A stretch of DNA of 64,000 nt from a virus (lineage: Duplodnaviria; Caudoviricetes), in the IMG/VR virus record IMGVR_UViG_3300028805_000046, positions 120,672 through 184,671 of that record, one strand, 5' to 3'. Every line of letters begins with the position of its first letter. Position 1 is the first letter of the stretch. The notes beneath the pieces were generated by a model that was given only the letters and a program-made list of their open reading frames with translations, was not told the DNA's origin and made no database searches. Below are positions 49,896 to 63,615 of this stretch, one piece after another. The position numbers and the translations under genes were made by a program.

Positions 49896-51653
49896 ATGGC
49901 TTTTAATCCACTTGCTATGCTTTCTCCGAAATCCGCTGCTCCTAAGAAGTCTTGGGACGAAGCTTGCGCTGACGCTTCCGTCATGGTCACTGAAGCTCTT
50001 AAGTTTTTGACAAATGAACCGGCCATCATGGCCTACTTCGGCCTGCTTGACTTGCGTCCAGTGAAGGACGAACAGGTCACTGTCCGACTCTCAACTAAGG
50101 GCGGCAACTCTGTCGCTGGCTTGGAGTACAACCCGTACTTCATCAACACTCTTGACGACCCGTCTGAGCTCGCACAGATTTTCTACGGCGAGTCGCTTCG
50201 TCTCGCTTTGCATCACTGCACGACTCGTTACATGAACCCGTGCGGCGTCAACATGCTTTCTTCAGATTTGATCTGCTTTGAAGACTTGCATATCCTTTCT
50301 CGCTGGAAAGATCCAGTCAAGCTCGCTGCTCCGCAGTTCCCGACGTACGCTCAGGTTAAGCCGGTGCTCGACAAGTACGGCTTTGACAAGTCCAAGCAGT
50401 GGATTCACGAACAGATTTTCAACTGCCTCTGCAAGGAAGCAAATGCGCAAAACCAACAGCGCAAAGAAAAGCTTGAAAAGATGTTGAAGGACGCTATGCA
50501 GCAAATGCAGAAGCAGCGCCAGCAACAGCAGCAGAAGAACGGTCAAGGCCAGAAAGATCAAAATCAGAATGGTCAAGGACAACAAGGCCAGGATGGTCAG
50601 CAACAAGACGGAAATCAACAGCAAGGCCAGGATGGTCAAGATCAGCAAGATCAACAAAACGGTCAAGGCCAGCAACAGCAACAGCAAGGTCAGGGTCAAG
50701 GACAAGATCAAAATCAATCCCAGGGCCAAGGCCAAGGTGACGGCAACGGCCAGTCTCAGGGTGACGGAAACGGACAGCAGGGTCAAGATCAGCAAGGTCA
50801 AGGCTCCGGCAACGGTGGTTCTCCTTCTGACGGATTGACTGACGAACAAGTCAAGGACTTGATGAACCAGATTGAAAACATCAAGCGTGACACGCCGGAC
50901 CTCCGTCAAAAGCCAAAGAGCCAGTCTCAAGCTGGTTCTGCGCTCGATCGTTACTTTGACAACAGCGAAGAGAACGGCCGCACGAAGTCTGAAAAGTGGG
51001 GAGAAAACGACTCGCTTGACGACAAGATTCAGGAAATCACCGAACACATCGCGGCTGACTCCTCTCGTTGGGGAAACGTCTCCGGTATGTTGAAGCAGAT
51101 GATTCTTGAAGCAAATGCGCCACGCTTTGACCCGACAACTGTTGTGAAGCACTTCAAGCAGGAAATTCAATCTGAACAGATGGAAAGCACTCGTTCTCGT
51201 CGTAACCGCCGTACTCCGTATCTTCCGGGCTGGCGTCACAAGATGAAGTCTTCTATCCTGTTCGCTATTGACTGTTCTGGTTCTATGAGCGATGATGATG
51301 TCGCTCTCGGCGAAGCATTCGTCAACAAGTTCATCAAGCACGCTCAAGTTTCTTACTGCTTCTGGGACGGTGTCTGTGGTGACATCACTGACCTCAAGCG
51401 CAAGGAAAAGGAATTTGAACTTATCGGCCGTGGCTGCACTAACCCGCAGTGCGTGCTTGACAAGTTGGAAGAAGAAGGACTCGACTACGGTGGAATCATC
51501 TTCTTCACTGACAACGGATTTAGCTGGGACCGTCCGAAGTCCAAGTGGGCCCGCAAGGTGTTCATCATCAGCACACACAATGCAGACGCTTGTCCGCCTT
51601 GGGTTCGCTACCACCTCTCTATGGACGACATCGAAGACTACAACAAGAGATAA
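49896..51653 (+). CDS. DUF2201-like peptidase-like/vWA protein with Q/G-rich linker
   Basis: YNP.F N-domain, MIDAS AIDCSGSMS, G.GCT and FFTD; partner of the MoxR ATPase. Confidence 0.82.
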   Translation: MAFNPLAMLSPKSAAPKKSWDEACADASVMVTEALKFLTNEPAIMAYFGLLDLRPVKDEQVTVRLSTKGGNSVAGLEYNPYFINTLDDPSELAQIFYGESLRLALHHCTTRYMNPCGVNMLSSDLICFEDLHILSRWKDPVKLAAPQFPTYAQVKPVLDKYGFDKSKQWIHEQIFNCLCKEANAQNQQRKEKLEKMLKDAMQQMQKQRQQQQQKNGQGQKDQNQNGQGQQGQDGQQQDGNQQQGQDGQDQQDQQNGQGQQQQQQGQGQGQDQNQSQGQGQGDGNGQSQGDGNGQQGQDQQGQGSGNGGSPSDGLTDEQVKDLMNQIENIKRDTPDLRQKPKSQSQAGSALDRYFDNSEENGRTKSEKWGENDSLDDKIQEITEHIAADSSRWGNVSGMLKQMILEANAPRFDPTTVVKHFKQEIQSEQMESTRSRRNRRTPYLPGWRHKMKSSILFAIDCSGSMSDDDVALGEAFVNKFIKHAQVSYCFWDGVCGDITDLKRKEKEFELIGRGCTNPQCVLDKLEEEGLDYGGIIFFTDNGFSWDRPKSKWARKVFIISTHNADACPPWVRYHLSMDDIEDYNKR

Positions 51654-54515: not shown

Positions 54516-54599
54516 CGGCTTGTGGTGAAATTGGTAGACACAGGGGACTTAAAATCCCCCGGCGGTAACGCCGTATCGGTTCGAGTCCGTTCAGGCCGA
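54516..54599 (+). tRNA. tRNA-Leu(TAA)
   Basis: Cloverleaf with long variable arm; GGGGA-CTTAAAA-TCCCC. Confidence 0.9.
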
Positions 54600-54616
54600 T
54601 AATTTTAGAATCCCTT

Positions 54617-54689
54617 GGGGATATAGTAAAACTGGTTATTACTGCGCACTTTTAATGCGCGATTTAGGGTTCGAGTCCCTATGTCCCCA
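54617..54689 (+). tRNA. tRNA-Lys(TTT)
   Basis: GCGCA-CTTTTAA-TGCGC. Confidence 0.9.
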
Positions 54690-54712
54690 TAAGTTTTGAG
54701 TTTAAATAAATC

Positions 54713-55402
54713 ATGAAGAGGTGCAATGAAAATTGGAAATGTCCGTACTGTAAAGATTTATTTCCTAGAAAAATAGATCTTATAGAACATAAAAGAGTCT
54801 GTGAAAAAGGTCCGAAAGTTCATATTCAATACGTAATCTTAGATGGAAAAAGAAAATATGCTCCTGGATGTAAAGCTTGGAATGCTGGACGAACCGGTGA
54901 AGACGATGTAAGATTAAAAGCAGCGGCAGAAAAATTAAAGAAAAGGTATGAAACGGAAGAATTGATGCCAGCTTATTTAGGTAAGAAGCATTCAGAAGAG
55001 ACTAAGAAAAGAATCTCTGAAAGTAGAAAACATTATTTAGCTGAACATCCAGAAAAAGTACCTTATGTATTGAATCACCATTCTAAAGGAGATAGCTATC
55101 CAGAGCAATACTTCAAAACGGTGTTCGAGAATAATAGGATCACTTACGAACAGAATTACAAAATACTCGGATATTATCTTGATTTTGCTTGGCCTGATAA
55201 AAAGACTTATTTAGAAATTGATGGAGAACAACATTATTTAGATAAAAGAATATTAGAACATGACATTCTTAGAACTGAAAGATTAAAGTCTGATGGATGG
55301 AAATGCCTAGATAGAATTAGATGGAGTAAATATAAGAAGCTTTCTAAAGAAAAGCAAGAGAAATTCGTTTTAGACTTAGTTTCAAAGATCAACAATCTTT
55401 AA
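54713..55402 (+). CDS. Zn-finger/NUMOD3/DUF559 (Vsr-like) putative homing endonuclease 1
   Basis: CPYC..H...C; HSEETKKRISES; LDFAW..EIDGEQH..D..R..L..GW. Confidence 0.8.
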   Translation: MKRCNENWKCPYCKDLFPRKIDLIEHKRVCEKGPKVHIQYVILDGKRKYAPGCKAWNAGRTGEDDVRLKAAAEKLKKRYETEELMPAYLGKKHSEETKKRISESRKHYLAEHPEKVPYVLNHHSKGDSYPEQYFKTVFENNRITYEQNYKILGYYLDFAWPDKKTYLEIDGEQHYLDKRILEHDILRTERLKSDGWKCLDRIRWSKYKKLSKEKQEKFVLDLVSKINNL

Positions 55403-55415
55403 CTATTGACATTAC

Positions 55416-55495
55416 ACGCTGGTAACCGGTTCGGACTTCTAATCCGTTATCCGTAACTGGAGTTGAAAATGCGGGTTCGATCCCCGCCCAGCGTA
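55416..55495 (+). tRNA. Atypical tRNA-Arg(TCT)-like RNA, D-armless with long variable region
   Basis: ACGCTGG/CCAGCGT acceptor, CGGA-CTTCTAA-TCCG, canonical T arm, CTA trailer. Confidence 0.65.
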
Positions 55496-55503
55496 CTACA
55501 TTT

Positions 55504-55576
55504 GGTGCATTAGAATAGTTGGTTAGTTCGCTAGCCTCTCAAGCTGGAGACTCGGGTCCGAATCCCGAATGCACTA
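55504..55576 (+). tRNA. tRNA-Glu(CTC)
   Basis: CTAGC-CTCTCAA-GCTGG. Confidence 0.85.
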
Positions 55577-55585
55577 CTAAATCTG

Positions 55586-55658
55586 CGTGCCTTAGTTTAT
55601 CGGTTGGCAAAACGCCTCCTTGACGGGGGAGTGTCCGGTTCGAGCCCGGAAGGACAGG
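55586..55658 (+). pseudogene. Degenerate tRNA-Val(GAC)
   Basis: D and T arms are present; acceptor and anticodon stems are mispaired. Confidence 0.45.
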
Positions 55659-55757
55659 TGGGAATCAACCCAGCGCAGACTAGAGGAACAAGAGTCTATT
55701 CGCGGTAAACTTGCGTTCCTCGGCGTCTTTCGCATTAGCCGGTAGCCCGGCACTTTT

Positions 55758-55828
55758 TGCCCGCTCGTATAGAAGTAGTATAGGAGACTTTGAATCTCTT
55801 GGAGGTGGGGCGGTACCACCGCGGGCAA
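55758..55828 (+). tRNA. tRNA-Gln(TTG) with non-canonical T loop
   Basis: GGAGA-CTTTGAA-TCTCT; T loop GGCGGTA. Confidence 0.75.
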
Positions 55829-55894
55829 CTAAAATTGGCGAGAGTGAAATTCTCTCAAAGCAGAACGCTACTGCGGTAACAAGTTAAACGAAAT

Positions 55895-55981
55895 AGGCGT
55901 ACTACCTTGGGCCGGACTCATAACCCGGGCTGCATAAACAATCCAGGGCGGTGCAGAGAGGTCCGACTCCTCGTATGCCTA
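55895..55981 (+). tRNA. Atypical tRNA(CAT)-like RNA, D-armless, 8/4 acceptor/T fold
   Basis: AGGCGTAC/GTATGCCT; CCGG.-CTCATAA-.CCGG; GAGG-TCCGACT-CCTC; CTA trailer. Confidence 0.55.
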
Positions 55982-56212
55982 CTATGTTGATAAAGTGTTG
56001 ATAAAACATTTTGTCAGGCGGCAATTTAGAGGATACGTCCTAAAAACTGTTGCTTAAAATTACATGGAAAACGTCGGTTTATTACACAAAAACCTGATAA
56101 ACCTGCGAGATTCCTGTGGTTCGCTAACAGTTGATAAATTGCCAATATAACACGGATTTTTGACTATTTTGAAGAAAGTGTAATATTTCGGAAAAAATTT
56201 TCAAATTTCCAA

Positions 56213-56249
56213 TTGCCAAGTAGCAATAAAGTTGTTATATTTACTACGT
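56213..56249 (+). promoter_or_regulatory. Early promoter, copy 6
   Basis: TTGCCA-N17-TATATT..CTACGT; no ORF downstream. Confidence 0.8.
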
Positions 56250-56457
56250 AATCAAAATCAACAACGGTTTGATTACAGAAAATCCTAGGCTAAAGCCTTG
56301 CTCGTTGAAAAAGCCCTCTGGCGCTGACAAGGGAAGCGCGGTTGATCTGGCTCACGACAAAACCCTAACGAGCGGGTCTATGCAGAATCGCTTGCGAATC
56401 TGCGCCGCAACCCTCAAAATTTTTCAGTTGAAATTTTGAAAAATTTTGAAAAATCGG

Positions 56458-56499
56458 TTGACAGAATCAAAAATAATTTTTATATTTGATCTGTCAATC
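56458..56499 (+). promoter_or_regulatory. TTGACA-N17-TATATT promoter enclosed in an inverted repeat
   Basis: TTGACAGAATCAAA..TTTGATCTGTCAA. Confidence 0.7.
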
Positions 56500-56559
56500 A
56501 AAACGCCTCGCTCGTGAAGCGAAGTGGAAAATTGAAAATTTGGAAATCCGTTTATCTAT

Positions 56560-56633
56560 GGTCCCATCGTCTACGATGGATAGGACGCTAGGTTTTCAAC
56601 CTGGAAAATTTGGTTCGACGCCAAATGGGACTA
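56560..56633 (+). tRNA. tRNA-Glu(TTC)
   Basis: CTAGG-TTTTCAA-CCTGG. Confidence 0.85.
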
Positions 56634-56635
56634 CT

Positions 56636-56960
56636 AGCGGAAACAACGAGATACTACTGTTTAGAGCGTGCGACTAATGCCTACCGGGGTTAAAGGTAGG
56701 TTGAGTTGCTTAGTTTTGGAGCCCCGCTTCTTTAACGGCGCGGCTGACGCGGTGCGAGTCCGGTCCGTACTCCTCACGTTCCCTGAAAGTTGTATCAGTG
56801 ATTGCCCAATGCTAACCGCTCCTAACCGAGTAAGGCAATAGCAAAGGTAAGTCAATCCTGACAGGTAGCAAACAGTCCTCGTGCCTTTATTCTGGAGCCG
56901 ATTACGCGTTCACGCTTCAGATTGGCCAAGAGCATCACCGATGCTCACAGTGTTTCTGCT
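56636..56960 (+). ncRNA. Unknown structured RNA of about 325 nt
   Basis: Terminal stem AGCGGAAACA/TGTTTCTGCT; inner ACGAG/CTCGT and ACTGTTT/AAACAGT stems. Confidence 0.55.
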
Positions 56961-56967
56961 CCCTTTT

Positions 56968-57040
56968 GCCCGTATAGCTCAGCTGGTAGAGCAGATGTTT
57001 AGTAATCATCAGGTCGGGGGTTCGGATCCCTCTGCGGGCG
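56968..57040 (+). tRNA. tRNA-Thr(AGT)
   Basis: GATGT-TTAGTAA-TCATC; A34. Confidence 0.8.
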
Positions 57041-57045
57041 CTAAT

Positions 57046-57140
57046 CTCAACAGCCATTTAGCGATAGCGATACTAACGTAATCAGCCGAGCCGCTAATTG
57101 AGGGAGGTCTCACCTGACGAGACGCTTTATGGGTGTTGAG
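57046..57140 (+). ncRNA. Unknown stem-closed RNA
   Basis: CTCAACAGCCAT/ATGGGTGTTGAG stem. Confidence 0.4.
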
Positions 57141-57270
57141 GGAGATCGCCTTTAAGGTGCACGATTGGCGGTCTCACCGGTATTGAGCGAAGAGATGTTA
57201 GGCGAACATCATTTGAAACAAAGTACAAGTTTCATTTCGGGCCGTAGCCGTTAGGGTCGCGCTCCCTTTT

Positions 57271-57343
57271 TGGGTTGTAGTTCAGTCGGTAGAACGGGTG
57301 GCTGTTAACCACCATGTCACAGGTTCGAGTCCTGTCTTCCCAG
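57271..57343 (+). tRNA. tRNA-Asn(GTT)
   Basis: GGTGG-CTGTTAA-CCACC. Confidence 0.88.
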
Positions 57344-57422
57344 CTAAAATTGCGATAGGAGCGGATTGAACTGCAGACAACTCGAGTAATGCTGCTAACT
57401 TTCAGCTCCAGCGCTTTTATTT

Positions 57423-57494
57423 GCCTTTATACGTTAATCGGTAAACGAGCTGATTTGTAATCAGCTATTCCTGGTTCGAGTCCGGGTGAAGGCG
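57423..57494 (+). tRNA. tRNA-Thr(TGT)
   Basis: GCTGA-TTTGTAA-TCAGC. Confidence 0.88.
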
Positions 57495-57505
57495 CTAAGA
57501 TATTC

Positions 57506-57879
57506 GGGGACCCTCCGCCAATGGCGAGTAAGACAAAGATGATACGACAAGCCGAAAGTAGTTGCATTGGTTGCTCTTTGTAGCTGCGATCTTGGTCCTT
57601 CCTAATGAAAGTCCCATATAAAGGAGTAAGTAGAACCGTGAATGGCTAGCTCTTAGCTAGAGCAGATAGGATCGGAACTCGCTGAAACGACAGAAGTCTC
57701 GAAGTTGCAAGTAGAAGACTGGGTAGCTCCCATAATCGGGCTGAAGTTACTTCTTGATGGAAGGATGGATAAGGAGAGGCGGTGCATCACACGAGTTGAG
57801 GTAAGCTCTCAATAGATAGGTGCATGGAACTAATAACGCAGGTGAAGTTCCTGTGGAGGTTCAACTCCTCCGGTCCCCA
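57506..57879 (+). ncRNA. 374-nt RNA with tRNA-like ends (tmRNA-like architecture)
   Basis: GGGGACC/GGTCCCC acceptor, GGAGG-TTCAACT-CCTCC T arm, A73 and CTA trailer. Confidence 0.6.
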
Positions 57880-57973
57880 CTAAATTGACAGTTATCAACA
57901 ATCTATCAACTGTATCAACTGTTTCTGTTTACAAAAGTTTACAGAAAAAATTGAAAAAATTTGAAAAAATTGG

Positions 57974-58010
57974 TTGACGGATTGGAAACTAATTGTTATA
58001 TTTACTACGT
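57974..58010 (+). promoter_or_regulatory. Early promoter, copy 7
   Basis: TTGACG-N17-TATATT..CTACGT. Confidence 0.8.
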
Positions 58011-58085
58011 TGAAATTGATTGCTCGATCTCAACAAGAAAAATTGAAAATTTTTGAAAAAAATGAAAAAATTTCAATTTTTACCC

Positions 58086-58125
58086 TTGACAAAATCAAAA
58101 TAATTTTTTATATTTGATACGTCAA
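58086..58125 (+). promoter_or_regulatory. TTGACA-N17-TATATT promoter; duplicate of the 56458 region
   Basis: Consensus elements, inverted repeat and shared downstream GCCTC.CTCG.GAAG. Confidence 0.7.
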
Positions 58126-58230
58126 AATAAAATGCCTCTCTCGCGAAGATTGGCAGAAAATTGAAAAAATGGCAGTTTTTGAAAAGTTCTTGTAATAAAT
58201 AGAACATATTGATTACAAGATCAATTCCAT

Positions 58231-58263
58231 GCCCCAGTGGCGCAATTGGTAGCGCAGCGGACT
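58231..58263 (+). tRNA. 5' half (positions 1-33) of an interrupted tRNA
   Basis: GCCCCAG TG GCGC AATTGGTA GCGC A GCGGA CT; pairs with 59003-59042. Confidence 0.88.
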
Positions 58264-58266
58264 GAA

Positions 58267-58274
58267 TATAAATA
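58267..58274 (+). promoter_or_regulatory. Late promoter TATAAATA at the 5' end of the tRNA insert
   Basis: Exact consensus 4 nt before ATG 58279. Confidence 0.75.
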
Positions 58275-58278
58275 CAAT

Positions 58279-58932
58279 ATGGAAACGTCTTGTATTTGTA
58301 AATTCTGTGGCAGAACTTGTAAAAATCCAAATGCTCACCGAAATCATGAGCGACTTTGTCCTGAAAATCCAGATAGAGTTTATGTCAATCACATGAAAGG
58401 CAAAGAACCCTGGAATAAAGGAAAAAACAAAGAAACAAATGATATTCTGAGAATTAAAGGAGAAAGACTAAGTGAACGCTACAGAAATGGCGAAATAATT
58501 CCTTCATGGAAGGACAAAAAACATTCTGCGAAGACGAAATCTAAAATTTTTGAATCAATGAAGTTAGCACATTCTGAAGGCAGAGCCTATAACATAGGGC
58601 AATGCCGTTGGAATAATGAACATAGTTGGCCAGAAAAATGGTTGATAAAAGTTCTAGCTGATGAATTTGATCTTAGAGAAAATGAAGATTACAAAACTGA
58701 ATTTTCCTTTGGTAGATTTTCTTTAGATTTTGCTTGGCCGACCAAGAAACTGTGCATAGAAGTTGATGGGAAGCAACATCAAACAGACAATACTCAAAAA
58801 CTGAGAGATGCTGCAAAAGATAAGCTTCTAACAGAAAACGGCTGGAAAGAACTTAGGATTCCTTGGCAAGAATGCTATAAAAATCCAAAAGAATGGATTG
58901 AAATTGTCCGTAAATTCCTAATGGGAGTATAA
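58279..58932 (+). CDS. Zn-finger/NUMOD3/DUF559 putative homing endonuclease 2, inside the split tRNA
   Basis: CKFC..HERLC; PWNKG; HSAKTKSKI; LDFAWP..IEVDGKQH..D..KD..L..GW..LRI.W. Confidence 0.82.
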   Translation: METSCICKFCGRTCKNPNAHRNHERLCPENPDRVYVNHMKGKEPWNKGKNKETNDILRIKGERLSERYRNGEIIPSWKDKKHSAKTKSKIFESMKLAHSEGRAYNIGQCRWNNEHSWPEKWLIKVLADEFDLRENEDYKTEFSFGRFSLDFAWPTKKLCIEVDGKQHQTDNTQKLRDAAKDKLLTENGWKELRIPWQECYKNPKEWIEIVRKFLMGV

Positions 58933-58995
58933 TACAATTGGCTAGTATAGGCGACTCTTAATCGTCGAATCCGAGTTCGAGTCTCGGTACTCCCA
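58923..58995 (+). tRNA. tRNA-Lys(CTT), nested in the insert and overlapping the endonuclease stop codon
   Basis: GGGAGTA/TACTCCC; GGCGA-CTCTTAA-TCGTC; canonical T arm. Confidence 0.88.
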
Positions 58996-59002
58996 TAAAA
59001 GC

Positions 59003-59042
59003 CATAATCCGTGGGTTGAAGGTTCGAGTCCTTCCTGGGGCA
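59003..59042 (+). tRNA. 3' half (positions 34-73) of the interrupted tRNA (CAT if joined after U33)
   Basis: CAT AA TCCGT GGGTT GAAGG TTCGAGT CCTTC CTGGGGC A followed by CTA. Confidence 0.88.
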
Positions 59043-59197
59043 CTAACGGCTTACAATAGAAACTATCAAAAAGGTCTTCAGGATAAGACGCTGTCAATCG
59101 TGGCAGAAAAATCAGTTCGAGTCTGGTTGAGATAGGGACAACGATAGGCAAGTCCTAGAACAGACTTTTCTAGAGGGTTTAAGTACAGGGCGAATAA

Positions 59198-59272
59198 CGG
59201 GCTGTAGCTCAGTCTGGCTAGAGCGCTTGATTTGGGATCAAGAGGTCGTCGGTTCGAATCCGACTAGCCCGA
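59198..59272 (+). tRNA. tRNA-Pro(TGG)
   Basis: CTTGA-TTTGGGA-TCAAG. Confidence 0.9.
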
Positions 59273-59455
59273 TACTGTTCAAAAATAGCAGTAATCTGAA
59301 AACGATTGATTTTGGCTTGATGCGCAGAGCAGGAATTGGTTGCAAGTATGGTTACGGCACAGGCGAGCACTTCAGTGGATTGTTTCAATACGATTTGGTG
59401 AAGAACAGCGAATGGTGCAGGTTGCGGGGTCGCTGCACTGAGAACAGTTTCTTAT

Positions 59456-59542
59456 GGGTGGCCGCTGACGGCTGGTGAGTCAGGGCGGACTGTAACTCCG
59501 CCGCCCTAACGGGCTTTGGGGGTCCGAATCCCTCGCCACCCA
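59456..59542 (+). tRNA. tRNA-Tyr(GTA)
   Basis: GCGGA-CTGTAAC-TCCGC; long variable arm. Confidence 0.85.
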
Positions 59543-59680
59543 CTAATGGTCAATGACTGTCCAATGACGGTAGTTGGACCGGACGCTAAAACGGACGGAC
59601 ACGGTGGTTCAAGTCCACCCGGGAATTGACAAGTCCACGAAAAGCTAACTGCAGGTAGTTGAGTAAGGGGCGAAACTTAT

Positions 59681-59753
59681 GGGCTTTTAGTTCAGTTGGA
59701 AGAACGCCTGATTTGCACTCAGGAGGTCAAGGGTTCGAGTCCCTTATTGTCCA
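59681..59753 (+). tRNA. tRNA-Ala(TGC)
   Basis: CCTGA-TTTGCAC-TCAGG; G3:U70. Confidence 0.88.
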
Positions 59754-59762
59754 CTATTACAT

Positions 59763-59835
59763 TGGGTTGTAGTTCTAATGGCAGAACGGGTGGCTGTTAA
59801 CCACTATGTTGGGGGTTCGAGTCCCTCCTTCCCAG
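59763..59835 (+). tRNA. tRNA-Asn(GTT)
   Basis: GGTGG-CTGTTAA-CCACT. Confidence 0.88.
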
Positions 59836-59849
59836 CTAACGCTTTTTAT

Positions 59850-59921
59850 TGCGGGGTAGAGCAGTGGTAGCTCGCCAGGCCCATAACCTGGAAGTCGTCG
59901 GTTCGATCCCGACCCCCGCTA
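59850..59921 (+). tRNA. tRNA-fMet(CAT)
   Basis: Unpaired 1:72, GCGGGG 5' end, CCAGG-CCCATAA-CCTGG. Confidence 0.85.
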
Positions 59922-59925
59922 CTAT

Positions 59926-59999
59926 GGCGCTGTCGAATAACTGGTTCAGTTCGTCGGCCTTTCAAGTCGGAAATTCGGGTTCGAGTCCCGACAGCGCTA
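59926..59999 (+). tRNA. tRNA-Glu(TTC)
   Basis: TCGGC-CTTTCAA-GTCGG. Confidence 0.85.
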
Positions 60000-60009
60000 C
60001 TAACATTTT

Positions 60010-60080
60010 GGTCTCATCGTTTAATGGATGGATACCGGCTTGTCACGCCGGAGGTACGGGATCGTGACCCGTTGAGACCG
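60010..60080 (+). tRNA. tRNA-Asp(GTC)
   Basis: CCGGC-TTGTCAC-GCCGG. Confidence 0.85.
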
Positions 60081-60230
60081 CTTCAAAAACGGAACTCTGT
60101 GAGTGTTTAGCATTTTCTGCACAGAGAAGATGGAGATTCTAACGTCCAATGCTTGTATAAGTTAGATTTCATACATCAGTGAAGTTTGGATGAGTTCATG
60201 ACTTATCTACGCCCGTTCTTCACCTTTTAT

Positions 60231-60303
60231 GGGCTCGTGGCGCAACTGGTAGCGCAACTGCTTTGCAAGCAGAAGGTTAAGGGTTCGAGTCCCTTCCCGT
60301 CCA
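60231..60303 (+). tRNA. tRNA-Ala(TGC)
   Basis: CTGC-TTTGCAA-GCAG; G3:U70. Confidence 0.85.
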
Positions 60304-60366
60304 CGAAATACTGATATGCAACAGAGAACTGAAACAAACGAACTTGAGTATATCAGCAGTGCTTAT

Positions 60367-60441
60367 TCCCGGGTAGCTCAGTTGGTTTAGAGCCGCTGTT
60401 TTACACACAGAAGGTCGGGGGTTCGAATCCCTCCTCGGGAA
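60367..60441 (+). tRNA. tRNA-Val(TAC)
   Basis: CTGT-TTTACAC-ACAG. Confidence 0.85.
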
Positions 60442-60645
60442 CTAATCCAGTGAGAGTCCTTGGCTTACTGGGAGCGTGCCGTCGCGAGAGGACCACGTTA
60501 AATACGACTTCTCCATTCTACGCTTCTTGATGAAAAGAAACGAGGTTGGTAACATCTTCCCTTGGTTGGCCGCCGTTGAAAAGATGGTAACAGTGACAGC
60601 GATATAACTGTTTTTAACTGGACTTAAGGGGTCTTCGCTCTTTTT

Positions 60646-60719
60646 CCGCAGCTATAGCAATTGGTTAGATAGCCACTCTGATAAGGTGGAGGTTCCTGGT
60701 TCGAGTCCAGGGTTGCGGA
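60646..60719 (+). tRNA. tRNA-Ile(GAT)
   Basis: CCACT-CTGATAA-GGTGG. Confidence 0.85.
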
Positions 60720-60728
60720 CTAAATTTT

Positions 60729-60802
60729 CCGCAGGCATAACGATTGGTTCGTTTGTCAGTCTGATATACTGGAGGTTGTAGGTTCAAATCCTACCCTGCG
60801 GA
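60729..60802 (+). tRNA. tRNA-Ile(GAT)
   Basis: TCAGT-CTGATAT-ACTGG. Confidence 0.8.
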
Positions 60803-60805
60803 CTA

Positions 60806-60866
60806 AAGATACATGCAGCAACTTTAACCCAATTCAATTTTTAATCTTGAATCCAAATGTATCTTG
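60806..60866 (+). ncRNA. AAGATAC/CAGCA/GTATCTTG element, copy 1
   Basis: AAGATACAT-GCAGCAA...ATGTATCTTG. Confidence 0.6.
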
Positions 60867-60871
60867 CTTTT

Positions 60872-60944
60872 GCCTCTCTAGCAAAGATGGTCTATGCAAC
60901 GGACTGAAAATCCGAGGATTCCCGATCGTTACGGGAGGGAGGCA
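60872..60944 (+). tRNA. tRNA-Phe(GAA)
   Basis: CGGA-CTGAAAA-TCCG. Confidence 0.85.
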
Positions 60945-60951
60945 CTAATTT

Positions 60952-61035
60952 GGCCTAGTGGGGGAATTGGTAGACCCGCCTGACTTAGGATCAGATGCCC
61001 GCAAGGGCGTGGGGGTTCGAGTCCCTCTTAGGTCA
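60952..61035 (+). tRNA. tRNA-Leu(TAG)
   Basis: CTGA-CTTAGGA-TCAG; long variable arm. Confidence 0.88.
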
Positions 61036-61046
61036 CTAAAACATTT

Positions 61047-61129
61047 CGCTCGGTGGTGGAATTGGTAGACACGCGGGTCTAAGAAGCCCGTGCCGAAAGG
61101 CGTGAGGGGTTCGAGTCCCTCCTGAGCGA
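61047..61129 (+). tRNA. tRNA-Leu(AAG)
   Basis: CGGGT-CTAAGAA-GCCCG; A34; long variable arm. Confidence 0.85.
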
Positions 61130-61135
61130 CTATTT

Positions 61136-61208
61136 GCTCTCGTAGGCTAACTGGATAGACCATCGGACTACGAATCCGATAATGCAGGTTCGAGTCCTGC
61201 CGAGAGCA
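61136..61208 (+). tRNA. tRNA-Arg(ACG)
   Basis: TCGGA-CTACGAA-TCCGA. Confidence 0.9.
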
Positions 61209-61212
61209 CGAA

Positions 61213-61329
61213 ATTCTGGTGAGCCGATTAACTCCGGCTAAATCTGGTGGAAGTCCAGCGTAAACCAAAAACTCCTTCTCAGGAGAACGGTGAGAATAAG
61301 TTGAAGTTTAGGGATCTCACAGCCAGAAT
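61213..61329 (+). ncRNA. Unknown stem-closed RNA
   Basis: ATTCTGG-TGAG / CTCA..CCAGAAT terminal stem with internal hairpins. Confidence 0.4.
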
Positions 61330-61340
61330 AAATAAACTAT

Positions 61341-61424
61341 GCTGAGGTGAATCCGAGCGGCAAAGGACACAGTCTGCAAAACTGTGGTGGAAACACTTCG
61401 TGGGTTCGAGTCCCTCTCTCAGCT
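61341..61424 (+). tRNA. tRNA-Cys(GCA) with long variable arm
   Basis: ACAGT-CTGCAAA-ACTGT; U73; GGTG-GAAA-CACT variable arm. Confidence 0.8.
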
Positions 61425-61437
61425 CTAGAATTTTTTT

Positions 61438-61528
61438 GGAGATGTGCCAGAGCACGGCTTATCGGACTGGTCTTGAAAACCATGGGCGGTAACCATTCCG
61501 CACGGGGGTTCGAATCCCTCCATCTCCT
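61438..61528 (+). tRNA. tRNA-Ser(TGA)
   Basis: TGGT-CTTGAAA-ACCA; long variable arm. Confidence 0.85.
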
Positions 61529-61532
61529 CTAA

Positions 61533-61605
61533 GTCCCATTGATGCAATTGGTAGCATATCTCCTTGCCATGGAGAAAGTTGTCGGTTCGAGTCCGACATG
61601 GGGCT
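61533..61605 (+). tRNA. tRNA-Gly(GCC)
   Basis: TCTCC-TTGCCAT-GGAGA; U73. Confidence 0.88.
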
Positions 61606-61614
61606 CTAACATTT

Positions 61615-61686
61615 GCCCTATTGGTGTAGTGGTTAACATTTCTGCCTTCCAAGCAGGTGTCCCCGGTTCGAGTCCGGGATAGGGCT
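61615..61686 (+). tRNA. tRNA-Gly(TCC)
   Basis: TCTGC-CTTCCAA-GCAGG; U73. Confidence 0.88.
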
Positions 61687-61689
61687 CTA

Positions 61690-61796
61690 AAGATGCAAAC
61701 AGCAGATCTGAACGCTGGAGTAGCTCAATAGGCTAGAGCACGGGATTTCCCGAGATGCTGGTTCGAGACCGGCCGTCAGTCCAATGGAGCATCTTG
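61690..61796 (+). ncRNA. AAGATGC/CAGCA/GCATCTTG element, copy 2, enclosing an anticodon-less tRNA mimic
   Basis: Compensatory change in the terminal stem; internal D arm, 4-nt-loop anticodon-like arm and T arm. Confidence 0.65.
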
Positions 61797-61805
61797 AATT
61801 TTTAT

Positions 61806-61875
61806 TGCGAGGAGAATAAGTATTCCAGCCGGTCTCATAAGCCGGCCTCCGTGGGGGCGGTACCCACCTTCGCAA
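61806..61875 (+). tRNA. Atypical tRNA-Met/Ile2(CAT)
   Basis: CCGGT-CTCATAA-GCCGG; tiny D arm; T loop GGCGGTA. Confidence 0.7.
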
Positions 61876-61884
61876 CTATACATC

Positions 61885-61959
61885 CCCGCAGTGGTGTTAA
61901 TTGGTAAAGCACGCATGCTTGTGGCGCATGAGGTCCGGGTTCAAATCTCGGCTATGGGA
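61885..61959 (+). tRNA. tRNA-His(GTG)
   Basis: CATGC-TTGTGGC-GCATG; A73 and no encoded G-1. Confidence 0.82.
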
Positions 61960-61963
61960 CTAT

Positions 61964-62190
61964 AAGATACTTACAGCAAAATAAAACGCTTACTAACGAT
62001 GACACAATCAAAATGTGGAATTAGGGTAGGGTAATTGCCGGCGGTAGTAATATCGTTGCCTGCTCCCACGGCCTGTTCGTACAAGTGACGGAATATGTCA
62101 GTAGAAACTGAATGAACTTGCAGCAAGCTGTTGCCTACCAGGAGAGATATGGTGAGAGCACAGCGGCGACTCAACCGCGACAGTATCTTG
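61964..62190 (+). ncRNA. AAGATAC/CAGCA/GTATCTTG element, copy 3 (long insert)
   Basis: AAGATACT-TACAGCAA...AGTATCTTG. Confidence 0.6.
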
Positions 62191-62195
62191 TTTAT

Positions 62196-62266
62196 TGCCC
62201 GTTGGTGTAATGGTAACACGCATGACTCTGACTCATGAATTGGTGGTTCAAGTCCATCACGGGCAA
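62196..62266 (+). tRNA. tRNA-Gln(CTG)
   Basis: CATGA-CTCTGAC-TCATG. Confidence 0.9.
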
Positions 62267-62277
62267 CTAATTTATCT

Positions 62278-62349
62278 AGGGATATAGTTCAATGGCCAGA
62301 ATGGCGGTCTCCAAAACCGTGGATCTTGGTTCGAGTCCAGGTGTCCCTG
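62278..62349 (+). tRNA. tRNA-Trp(CCA)
   Basis: GCGGT-CTCCAAA-ACCGT; G73. Confidence 0.9.
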
Positions 62350-62353
62350 CTAC

Positions 62354-62566
62354 AAAATAATTCGTTACTTCACTGGACATATTGGCCTGCCAGGAATTGA
62401 AGTTCTTATTTGAGTCGTTAGCTTGCTAATGCGCATTTAAAGCGGCGATACTTGAGTGAGGTGATATAACGATACGCAATCCTATGTAAGAAGGGCCGGA
62501 AAGTCACCCGGGACACAGAGGAACATAGCATGAAACAATCTGTGCTAACTTGTAATGAATTATTTT
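62354..62566 (+). ncRNA. Unknown stem-closed RNA of about 210 nt
   Basis: 15-bp terminal stem AAAATAATTCGTTAC/GTAATGAATTATTTT. Confidence 0.5.
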
Positions 62567-62573
62567 TATTTTT

Positions 62574-62657
62574 GGCCAAGTGGCGGAATTGGTAGACGCC
62601 GGGGTCTCAAACACCCCTGCCCGCAAGGGCGTGAAGGTTCAAGTCCTTCCTTGGCTA
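62574..62657 (+). tRNA. tRNA-Leu(CAA)
   Basis: GGGGT-CTCAAAC-ACCCC; long variable arm. Confidence 0.88.
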
Positions 62658-62662
62658 CTTTA

Positions 62663-62765
62663 AAGATACTAACAGCAAGAATATTTCTTATTCCGCCTTG
62701 GGAACAATAGCTTAAGTATAGAGCGCCGGCAGCACATGCCGGAGGTGAAACAAAATGGTATCTTG
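62663..62765 (+). ncRNA. AAGATAC/CAGCA/GTATCTTG element, copy 4, with partial tRNA-like arms
   Basis: AAGATACT-AACAGCAA...GGTATCTTG; internal GCTT-AAGTATA-GAGC and CCGGC-N7-GCCGG. Confidence 0.6.
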
Positions 62766-62770
62766 CTTTT

Positions 62771-62855
62771 TGCGGGTTGGGTGAGTGGTCTAAACCAGTT
62801 CGGTGCTAACGAACCGCTCAGTAATGGGCCGCGGGTTCGAATCCTGCACCCGCAG
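62771..62855 (+). tRNA. tRNA-Ser(GCT)
   Basis: GTTCG-GTGCTAA-CGAAC; long variable arm; G73. Confidence 0.85.
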
Positions 62856-62910
62856 TAATACAGGACAACTGGTTCCCGCCAGCTGATGCTTTCTCCAAAG
62901 CATCTAACTG

Positions 62911-62918
62911 TATAAATA
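62911..62918 (+). promoter_or_regulatory. Late promoter TATAAATA
   Basis: Exact consensus upstream of endonuclease 3. Confidence 0.7.
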
Positions 62919-62962
62919 AAATGGTTACGGGAATAACCATAAAAAGCTAAAAAGGAGAAAAG

Positions 62963-63592
62963 ATGAAAATACATTTTAAATGGCCGTGTCCTTATTGTAC
63001 TGATGTTTTTGATTCTAAAGGACTAAAATATAAACATTTACATGAAGTTCATAAAATTAAATGTGGACAACAGCCAAAACGTTCATTAACATGTAAATTT
63101 TGTGGACATACGGTAATTACTACATTGTGCGGTATGCGTTTACATGAACGCAGATGTAAGAAAAATCCTAATCCTGCACCTTATAATGGTCACTCAGTTT
63201 CTGCTGAACAAAAACAAATTTTACGTGAACGCGCTTTAGAAGGATATAGATCAGGCAGATGGCATGGATGGATGAACTGCCATTCGAGCAAGAAAAGCTA
63301 TCCGGAAGAATTCTTCACAAAAGTAATAGAAAATGAGTTTAATGATAAAGATTATGAATACAATTATCAGTTCTTTCAATATAGATTAGATTTTGCTTGG
63401 GTTAAAAAGAAACGTTGCATAGAAATTGACGGTGCTCAACATCAACGAAATGAACAACAAGCTGAATCAGATCTCAGGAAAGATTCAAAACTTATTGAAA
63501 ATGGTTGGCAAGTTTTAAGAATAAAATGGAAAGAAATGTATGCAGAGCCAAAAAGATGGATTTCTATAGCTAGTAATTTCATCGGAGAATAA
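62963..63592 (+). CDS. Zn-finger/DUF559 putative homing endonuclease 3
   Basis: CPYC..H...H, CKFC..HERRC; SYPE; LDFAW..IEIDGAQH..D..KD..L..GW..LRI.W. Confidence 0.82.
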   Translation: MKIHFKWPCPYCTDVFDSKGLKYKHLHEVHKIKCGQQPKRSLTCKFCGHTVITTLCGMRLHERRCKKNPNPAPYNGHSVSAEQKQILRERALEGYRSGRWHGWMNCHSSKKSYPEEFFTKVIENEFNDKDYEYNYQFFQYRLDFAWVKKKRCIEIDGAQHQRNEQQAESDLRKDSKLIENGWQVLRIKWKEMYAEPKRWISIASNFIGE

Positions 63593-63615
63593 AGGTTCGA
63601 GTCCTGCACTCTCCG
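63584..63615 (+). pseudogene. tRNA 3' remnant (T arm plus acceptor strand, Ser-like)
   Basis: AGG-TTCGAGT-CCTGC-ACTCTCC-G immediately after the endonuclease stop codon. Confidence 0.6.

Follow-up and report, generated by a model that had tools for sequence, protein, structure and literature searches.

Free-standing homing endonucleases have been described in phage tRNA clusters (PMC2330249, PMC13096335, PMC8421152). In the tRNA cluster of T4 the free-standing GIY-YIG homing endonuclease SegB is encoded (PMC2330249, PMC13096335). SegB cuts within tRNA genes, with the tRNA-Asn gene of T2L as the preferred site, and drives the inheritance of its own gene and of the flanking tRNAs, to the detriment of recipient markers (PMC2330249). 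A Vsr-like family of homing endonucleases, the EDxHD family, is known as well and has free-standing members in T4-like phages (PMC3239194). This report deals with three open reading frames (ORF1, ORF2 and ORF3) in the tRNA array of a giant phage, located in the final 64 kb (the window, i.e. the whole stretch that was analysed) of the 184,671-bp IMG/VR record IMGVR_UViG_3300028805_000046. ORF2 lies inside a disrupted tRNA-Lys(CUU) gene and is accompanied there by a complete second tRNA-Lys(CUU) gene. Comparison with related arrays makes it probable that genes of this type belong to homing cassettes, which reside inside a tRNA gene and bring a spare tRNA with the anticodon of the gene they interrupt, in the manner of an intron but without splicing.

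The locus resembles that of SegB in the position of an endonuclease gene within a phage tRNA cluster. In both cases related phages differ by the presence or absence of this gene, and the target is intact in the empty allele. The nuclease domain, however, is Vsr-like, and no GIY-YIG domain was found in the ORFs. SegB, which reads a shared T-loop motif, is not restricted to a single tRNA species. Furthermore, SegB has not been described as systematically paired with a spare tRNA of identical anticodon, and its gene does not lie inside the anticodon of a disrupted isoacceptor. By analogy, the cassettes appear to work like SegB while standing outside the SegB family. With I-Bth0305I and the EDxHD family, which includes phage Hef (PMC3239194), the proteins share the catalytic fold, conserved catalytic residues and the N-terminal placement of their DNA-binding modules. 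I-Bth0305I, in contrast, sits in a recA group I intron and carries NUMOD2/helix-turn-helix modules (PMC3239194), whereas a CCHC zinc finger is present in the proteins described here, in duplicate in ORF3; they match NUMOD3 weakly at best, have no intron and presumably target tRNA genes.

Group I introns in tRNA anticodon loops (PMC3984707) are similar with respect to the insertion into the anticodon loop, the tRNA halves as possible homology arms and the destruction of the target. Unlike these introns, the cassettes have no ribozyme core, and excision would not restore the tRNA, which lacks C34 and T35. Its function would be kept through the spare tRNA of the cassette rather than by splicing. 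Intronless homing in T4-like phages (PMC2988022) is comparable in the position of the endonuclease gene within or beside the host gene, in localised marker exclusion and in co-conversion of the flanks. The split products of the genes-in-pieces of T4-like phages still cooperate, whereas in the present case the split tRNA is apparently dead and its place is taken by a second gene. The mobE/nrdA locus of Aeh1 is an example of genes-in-pieces made by a free-standing endonuclease.

A full-text literature search, with most subscription journals outside its range, found no description of an endonuclease together with a spare tRNA of the same anticodon inside the disrupted gene. Homing endonucleases usually persist in essential genes by means of self-splicing introns or inteins. 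The cassettes seem to solve the problem of the essential gene otherwise, by carrying a working substitute for the gene that is broken.

The cassette in a split tRNA-Lys(CUU) gene

The resident tRNA-Lys(CUU) gene of the window is interrupted in its anticodon loop (all cassette-related features given in this report are on the + strand). Its 5' part (tRNA positions 1–33) spans 58231–58263 and its 3' part (positions 36–73) spans 59005–59042, followed by the array-typical CTA at 59043–59045. The insert between host positions 33 and 36 is 741 nt long. It starts with a late promoter, TATAAATA (58267–58274), which begins 4 nt past the insertion junction, and continues with ORF2 (58279–58932) and the nested companion tRNA-Lys(CUU) of the GGGAGTA lineage (58923–58995, 60.2 bits), followed by TAA at 58996–58998. 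The last three codons and the stop codon of ORF2 overlap the companion tRNA, and only ~20 nt of the cassette lie outside ORF2 and the nested tRNA.

A pattern search revealed the intact host gene on 15 viral contigs, three of which are identical to the halves in the window. The 5' part is identical to the intact genes at the related loci L178, L189 and L190 and to the 5' halves at L007 and L096. Compared to the intact homologs, the anticodon bases C34 and T35 are gone from the host gene of the window. As all intact homologs have the anticodon CTT and the halves align with them, the disrupted and the nested gene both are tRNA-Lys(CUU) genes, which differ in sequence. ARAGORN reads the joined halves as tRNA-Met(CAT). 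This assignment was rejected, since 15 of 15 intact homologs read CTT and the 'CA' belongs to the insert. No group I intron, tmRNA or other RNA family is present between 53500 and 64000 at E ≤1 (Rfam scan).

In the window, the slot between tRNA-Thr(UGU) and tRNA-Pro(UGG) is occupied by the Lys(CUU) cassette (58231–59045). At L011 and L105 the same slot instead has an Asn(GUU) cassette with its own split Asn host. An orphan T arm with a 3' acceptor-like fragment is located between the ORF2 cassette and tRNA-Pro (59111–59135). It may be the relic of an earlier event.

A preliminary description of this DNA had proposed a family of endonuclease-plus-tRNA cassettes that remodel the array. The comparative sequence data speak for such cassettes by the association with arrays, the linked lineages, the split hosts and the presence of empty and occupied alleles. 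They add a regularity that had not been noticed: the carried tRNA has the anticodon of the tRNA gene that is destroyed by the cassette. Hosts were identified from the tRNA halves that flank the cassettes, each half being assigned from the closest intact tRNA. Host and companion have the same anticodon in 8/8 distinct pairs. These comprise two different Lys(CUU) hosts (window/L096 type and L095/L098 type), an Asn(GUU) host (L011, L105), three Pro(UGG) hosts (L061, L062 and the second gene of L156), a Lys(UUU) host (L156) and a Ser(GCU) host (L165). The endonuclease in the Lys(UUU) host is 50% identical to ORF1 and has a companion of the same lineage as the tRNA-Lys at 54617–54689 of the window; the one in the Ser(GCU) host is 70% identical to ORF3.

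The left junctions are located at host positions 33–36. Occupied L096 and empty L178 share 93.6% identity over 2432 nt as far as host position 33. Past this position, L096 has 726 nt with promoter, endonuclease gene and companion, whereas L178 has the 12 nt CTTAATCCGTGG. The alignment picks up again with 97% identity across the T arm, the acceptor and the trailer. Likewise, L007 (occupied) and L190 (empty) have the array order Ser, Met, [Lys], Gly, His, Gln, Trp, Ser in common. The 3' anticodon strand has been lost in L096, L095 and L011, and the whole 3' half in L007. The window, L007 and L096 do not differ in the 33-nt 5' half, although the DNA identity of their ORFs is just 73%. This fits halves that are renewed from functional target genes with each homing event.

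The endonucleases and their tRNA partners

ORF1 (54713–55402, 229 residues) has a zinc finger, a NUMOD3-like region and a Vsr-like (DUF559) domain and belongs to a Lys(UUU)-associated clade. ORF2 (217 residues) combines a zinc finger with the Vsr-like domain and belongs to a Lys(CUU)-associated clade. ORF3 (62963–63592, 209 residues) has two zinc fingers and the Vsr-like domain and lacks the central NUMOD3-like stretch. The Pfam family DUF559 (PF04480) matches ORF1, ORF2 and ORF3 with 27.5, 36.2 and 39.5 bits (cut-off 20.6). A six-frame search of the 184.7-kb record shows these three to be its only DUF559 genes, all inside the 9-kb array. ORF3 is 39% identical to ORF2 and 35% identical to ORF1, i.e. 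the genes are paralogs. The motifs by which the preliminary description had recognized them as such (zinc finger, S(Y/W)PE, LDFAW..E(I/V)DG.QH and GW..RI.W) are all present.

The conserved N-terminal module is a CCHC zinc finger of the form CxxC...H...C, borne by invariant Cys and His residues; in ORF2 a weak C2H2 zinc-finger match is just under the Pfam cut-off. NUMOD3 is matched just below its cut-off of 20.4 bits in ORF1 (20.0 bits) and weakly in ORF2. In an alignment of 13 diverse members, C7, C10, H23, C27, P118, E119, D150, E161, D163 and D177 are invariant, and H167 is at least 90% conserved. A family profile search matches the catalytic domain of I-Bth0305I (pdb entry 3R3P) with E = 3.6e-7. 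D150, E161, D163, H167 and D177 align with D196, E, N208, about H213 and D222 of I-Bth0305I (roles according to PMC3239194), the His column being one position off in the hidden Markov model alignment. The AlphaFold model of ORF2 has a pLDDT of 85.7. Its top Foldseek matches are chains A and B of 3R3P (TM 0.82–0.84, rmsd 2.7–3.0 Å, 24% identity). From the DUF559 matches, the profile and structure matches to 3R3P and the conserved catalytic set, the three ORFs are predicted to be free-standing Vsr-like (EDxHD-type) homing endonucleases.

Late-promoter-like elements precede all three ORFs, as had been reported: TTTAAATA at 54701–54708, which is one base off the consensus, and TATAAATA at 58267–58274 and 62911–62918. 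In relatives, TATAAATA is found ≤80 nt upstream of 50 of 136 genes, compared to 1.6% of random windows.

Relatives comprise 87 homologs from a protein search and 159 further loci from scans of viral and metagenome contigs. When the flanking tRNAs were tabulated, a check proposed in the preliminary description, 118 of 141 distinct endonuclease genes were found to abut a tRNA. A tRNA starts between -45 and +30 nt from the stop codon in 67/141 genes and ends ≤130 nt upstream in 83/141; the remaining 23 genes have a tRNA in neither of these ranges. In a tree of 130 endonucleases the identity of the adjacent tRNA changes 34 times (56–67 times in 200 shuffles). Clades correspond to Pro, Lys-UUU, Lys-CUU, Asn, Met and Thr, with ORF1 in the Lys(UUU) and ORF2 in the Lys(CUU) clade. 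The label fits all members (6/6) of the Pro(UGG) clade. In the Pro and Lys(UUU) clades the tRNA is upstream in some members and downstream in others, and the arrays are of CTA type or CCA type.

The companion of ORF2 belongs to a separate lineage of tRNA-Lys(CUU). GGGAGTA-type genes (or close variants) occur only directly 3' of an endonuclease gene, which holds for 9/9 distinct sequences outside the record and for that of the window. Resident types of tRNA-Lys(CUU) never have this position. Where arrays lack an endonuclease gene, the host-type gene adjoins other resident types, never the companion type. The Lys(CUU) pair is present in at least six different array contexts.

A second endonuclease-linked Lys(CUU) lineage is found at L013, L018, L103, L104 and L108, where the tRNA is located 36–49 nt upstream of the endonuclease gene. 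Its T arm is aberrant (CCGG ATCGTGG CCGG) and lacks the GGTTCGA motif. Such T loops would escape an enzyme that reads a T-loop motif as SegB does. The tRNA-Phe of the window (60872–60945) has an odd T arm akin to that of this lineage. The nested tRNA-Lys(CUU) at L007 (4642–4714) is a chimera with the acceptor stem of the companion lineage and the body of the resident lineage (as L105:4576), which points to gene conversion between these two kinds of gene.

Genes of this family are plentiful in large phages that have not been cultured; at least 130 distinct ones were found. In a search for relatives in cultured phages, no close homolog turned up at E ≤1e-8 among 50,697 GenBank phage records. A distant homolog with 24% identity to ORF2 is located inside the tRNA array of Rhizobium phage RHph_TM30 (L175; NC_070966.1, 129286–134801). 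This array contains two genes annotated as 'homing endonuclease protein'. The ORF2 relative stops a single base short of a tRNA-Met(CAT), with another Met(CAT) upstream.

At the ORF1 locus the companion is tRNA-Lys(UUU) (54617–54689, 62.6 bits), which is followed by TAA and ends 23 nt upstream of ORF1. It belongs to an unusual lineage (body TAGTAAAACTGGTTATTAC...) in common with the Lys(UUU) upstream of the ORF1-type endonuclease in L156/L035. The first tRNA of the array, tRNA-Leu(UAA) (54516–54599, TAA at 54600–54602), is the second neighbour of ORF1 and only a candidate member of this cassette.

At the ORF3 locus tRNA-Ser(GCU) (62771–62855, then TAA) is located 107 nt upstream of the gene; ORF3-type relatives have Ser(GCU) or Ser(ACU) likewise at 82–107 nt. 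The leader in between (62859–62962) is conserved among ORF3-type genes and consists of two hairpins, TAACT, TATAAATA, a third hairpin and a ribosome-binding site. The stems of the first two hairpins show compensatory changes among L165, L170, L174 and L047, as judged by eye from the aligned relatives. One ORF1-type gene has this hairpin leader as well. By analogy to the leaders of T4 endonuclease genes it may be a translational control element. A collapsed tRNA remnant overlaps the ORF3 stop codon (63584–63615). It retains only the acceptor and the T arm (5' acceptor-like GGAGAAT, T loop TTCGAGT, 3' acceptor ACTCTCC, discriminator G) and resembles the GGAGAGT-type Ser(GCU) of relatives, which is compatible with a Ser(GCU) gene minus its middle. 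No empty allele of the ORF3 site is present among the fetched loci.

Homing model and alternative explanations

The mobile unit would comprise three elements: a late promoter of the T4 type, the endonuclease gene and, immediately 5' or 3' of this gene, a complete companion tRNA. Each endonuclease lineage would pair with a single tRNA species, which is Lys-UUU for ORF1, Lys-CUU for ORF2 and Ser-GCU for ORF3. When a phage without cassette co-infects, the enzyme would cut its resident gene in the anticodon region. The break would then be repaired from the cassette-bearing genome, with the tRNA halves serving as homology arms like the exons of a mobile intron. Finally, the companion would replace the destroyed tRNA in function, and its different stem sequences should make it uncuttable. 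Cleavage, its site and specificity, companion immunity and repair-driven spread, i.e. active homing, are inferred from the protein family, the architecture of the target site and the precedent of SegB (PMC2330249).

If true, this model would explain the variability of phage tRNA arrays and their abundance of tRNA fragments, as well as part of the odd tRNA sequence diversity in large phages. It would also yield a set of natural nucleases whose targets, specific tRNA genes, can be predicted, and tie the spread of tRNA alleles to a drive mechanism. Such alleles are now known as counter-defence tools. A more far-reaching version is tentative and rather doubtful: the cassettes would form a distinct selfish class, a self-compensating gene drive for tRNA alleles, in which the resident gene is cut at its anticodon and an uncuttable, divergent isoacceptor is installed. 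Lys, Asn, Pro, Met and Thr make up most of the carried tRNA species, and bacterial anticodon nucleases attack several of them. The drive may thus have a second effect, the spread of tRNA variants that evade tRNA-cleaving defences of the host, which would link homing to counter-defence.

Several points weigh against the homing model. No host tRNA remnant was found for ORF1 in the window. The remnant at ORF3 is too short for formal identification, and BLAST gave no identity for it. At L165 the disrupted Ser(GCU) gene belongs to the type found intact in the window, which calls for diverged specificities or some other history. The right junctions vary, with host position 36/37 in some loci and 44–47 in others. 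L098 contains a Lys(UUU) of the companion lineage without an endonuclease gene. The clustering in the tree is not relied on alone because it is inflated by shared ancestry. Finally, all relatives are metagenomic assemblies of repetitive arrays. The cassette design recurs across independent samples and assemblers, which speaks against an assembly artefact.

The spacers between dispensable tRNAs might simply tolerate insertions, with the neighbouring tRNAs as bystanders and the enzymes directed against something else or nothing. Phage tRNA regions commonly contain homing endonuclease genes from several families (PMC13096335, PMC8421152), the high tRNA density makes some adjacency expected, and ORF1 without host remnant would agree with such tolerance. 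It does not account for clades that track one tRNA identity across CTA- and CCA-type arrays, whichever side the tRNA occupies, for ORFs that overlap the 5' end of a tRNA, for companion lineages seen only with endonuclease genes, or for eight distinct cassettes inside a tRNA gene of the same identity. Mere tolerance is thus quite unlikely. A related, likewise unlikely explanation starts from two pre-existing isoacceptor copies, one of which was invaded while the other is an old neighbour, so that the pairing would reflect tolerated redundancy and not co-mobility. Two adjacent Lys(CUU) genes are indeed frequent in endonuclease-free arrays, L013-type loci (companion, 5' remnant, endonuclease gene, 3' remnant) could arise in this way, and the swapped Ser types of the window and L165 would fit as well. 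The partners in endonuclease-free arrays, however, are never of companion type. The nested order of 5' half, endonuclease gene, full tRNA and 3' half is impossible to obtain from a tandem pair by one insertion, and the comparison of L096 with L178 shows endonuclease gene and companion arriving together where a single host gene is present.

The interrupted gene could also be a working split or intron-bearing tRNA of a new kind, with the cassette removed at the RNA level or the halves ligated. The junction in the anticodon loop after U33 and the perfectly conserved halves would be in line with this, and joining 58263 to 59003 results in a canonical 73-nt cloverleaf, the tRNA-Met(CAT) of ARAGORN. 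With CTT in all intact homologs, however, two anticodon bases are missing and CAT is accidental. No intron family is matched, ORF and nested tRNA take up nearly the whole cassette, and the 3' anticodon strand or the entire 3' half is gone in relatives. A working split tRNA is therefore extremely improbable. RNA ligase (PF09414) and RtcB (PF01139) were not found in the 184.7-kb record, an absence that carries little weight because the record is only ~54% complete (CheckV).

Trailers and other features of the array

In the window the discriminator base is as a rule followed by CTA. TAA is found only after Leu(UAA) 54599, Lys(UUU) 54689, Lys(CUU) 58995 and Ser(GCU) 62855; other non-CTA trailers are TAC after Pro, CGA (twice) and CTT (once). 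TAA follows 3/4 tRNAs immediately adjoining an ORF and 1/31 others, the latter being the Leu gene (Fisher p = 0.002). This agrees with the earlier claim that only tRNAs beside the ORFs carry TAA. Among the relatives, 40 arrays are of CTA type and 37 of CCA type. Discriminator plus CTA is the majority trailer in the former 40 arrays and in the window between 55495 and 62352; CTA is therefore a signal conserved throughout the lineage.

TAA had further been taken as the mark of a foreign tRNA. In the CTA-type arrays of relatives, where counts are not phylogenetically independent, TA[A/T/G] follows 21/59 endonuclease-adjacent tRNAs and 37/445 of all others (odds ratio 6.1). Among distinct sequences the enrichment is confined to tRNAs directly upstream of the endonuclease gene (13/29 versus 29/348 others, odds ratio 8.9, p = 1e-6), whereas the value for distinct nested downstream sequences (2/14) is not significant. 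With one tRNA per distinct endonuclease gene, 12/15 nested downstream tRNAs end in CTA, and TAA as a marker travelling with the cassette was rejected for nested companions. What stands is a real tendency towards TA-rich trailers, which has the character of a junction feature in upstream tRNAs rather than of a tag that marks foreign tRNAs. On upstream tRNAs the TA-rich trailer may simply be where the AT-rich leader of the cassette begins.

T4-like portal, major head and baseplate genes are present in the window; the major head protein shows only ~32% identity to its best match in a cultured phage. ARAGORN places 33 tRNA genes at 54516–62856, to which Rfam contributes another two. Close to the upstream end of the array, a 585-residue ORF (49896–51653) has a weak match to an HNH-endonuclease PHROG. 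The G+C content around it is 0.50 compared to ~0.41, and it may be another mobile element. A non-coding stretch of 374 nt (57506–57879) is bounded by a perfect 7-bp acceptor stem, a T arm, A73 and CTA. Neither ARAGORN nor Rfam calls a tmRNA in it. A homolog with 87% identity over 194 nt is located between the Ala and Asn tRNAs of L185. Two tRNA-like genes (55416–55495 and 55895–55981) have acceptor, anticodon and T arms without a normal D arm. The first one is directly 3' of ORF1 and is matched by Rfam with 35.4 bits. Their anticodon loops read TCT and CAT, respectively.

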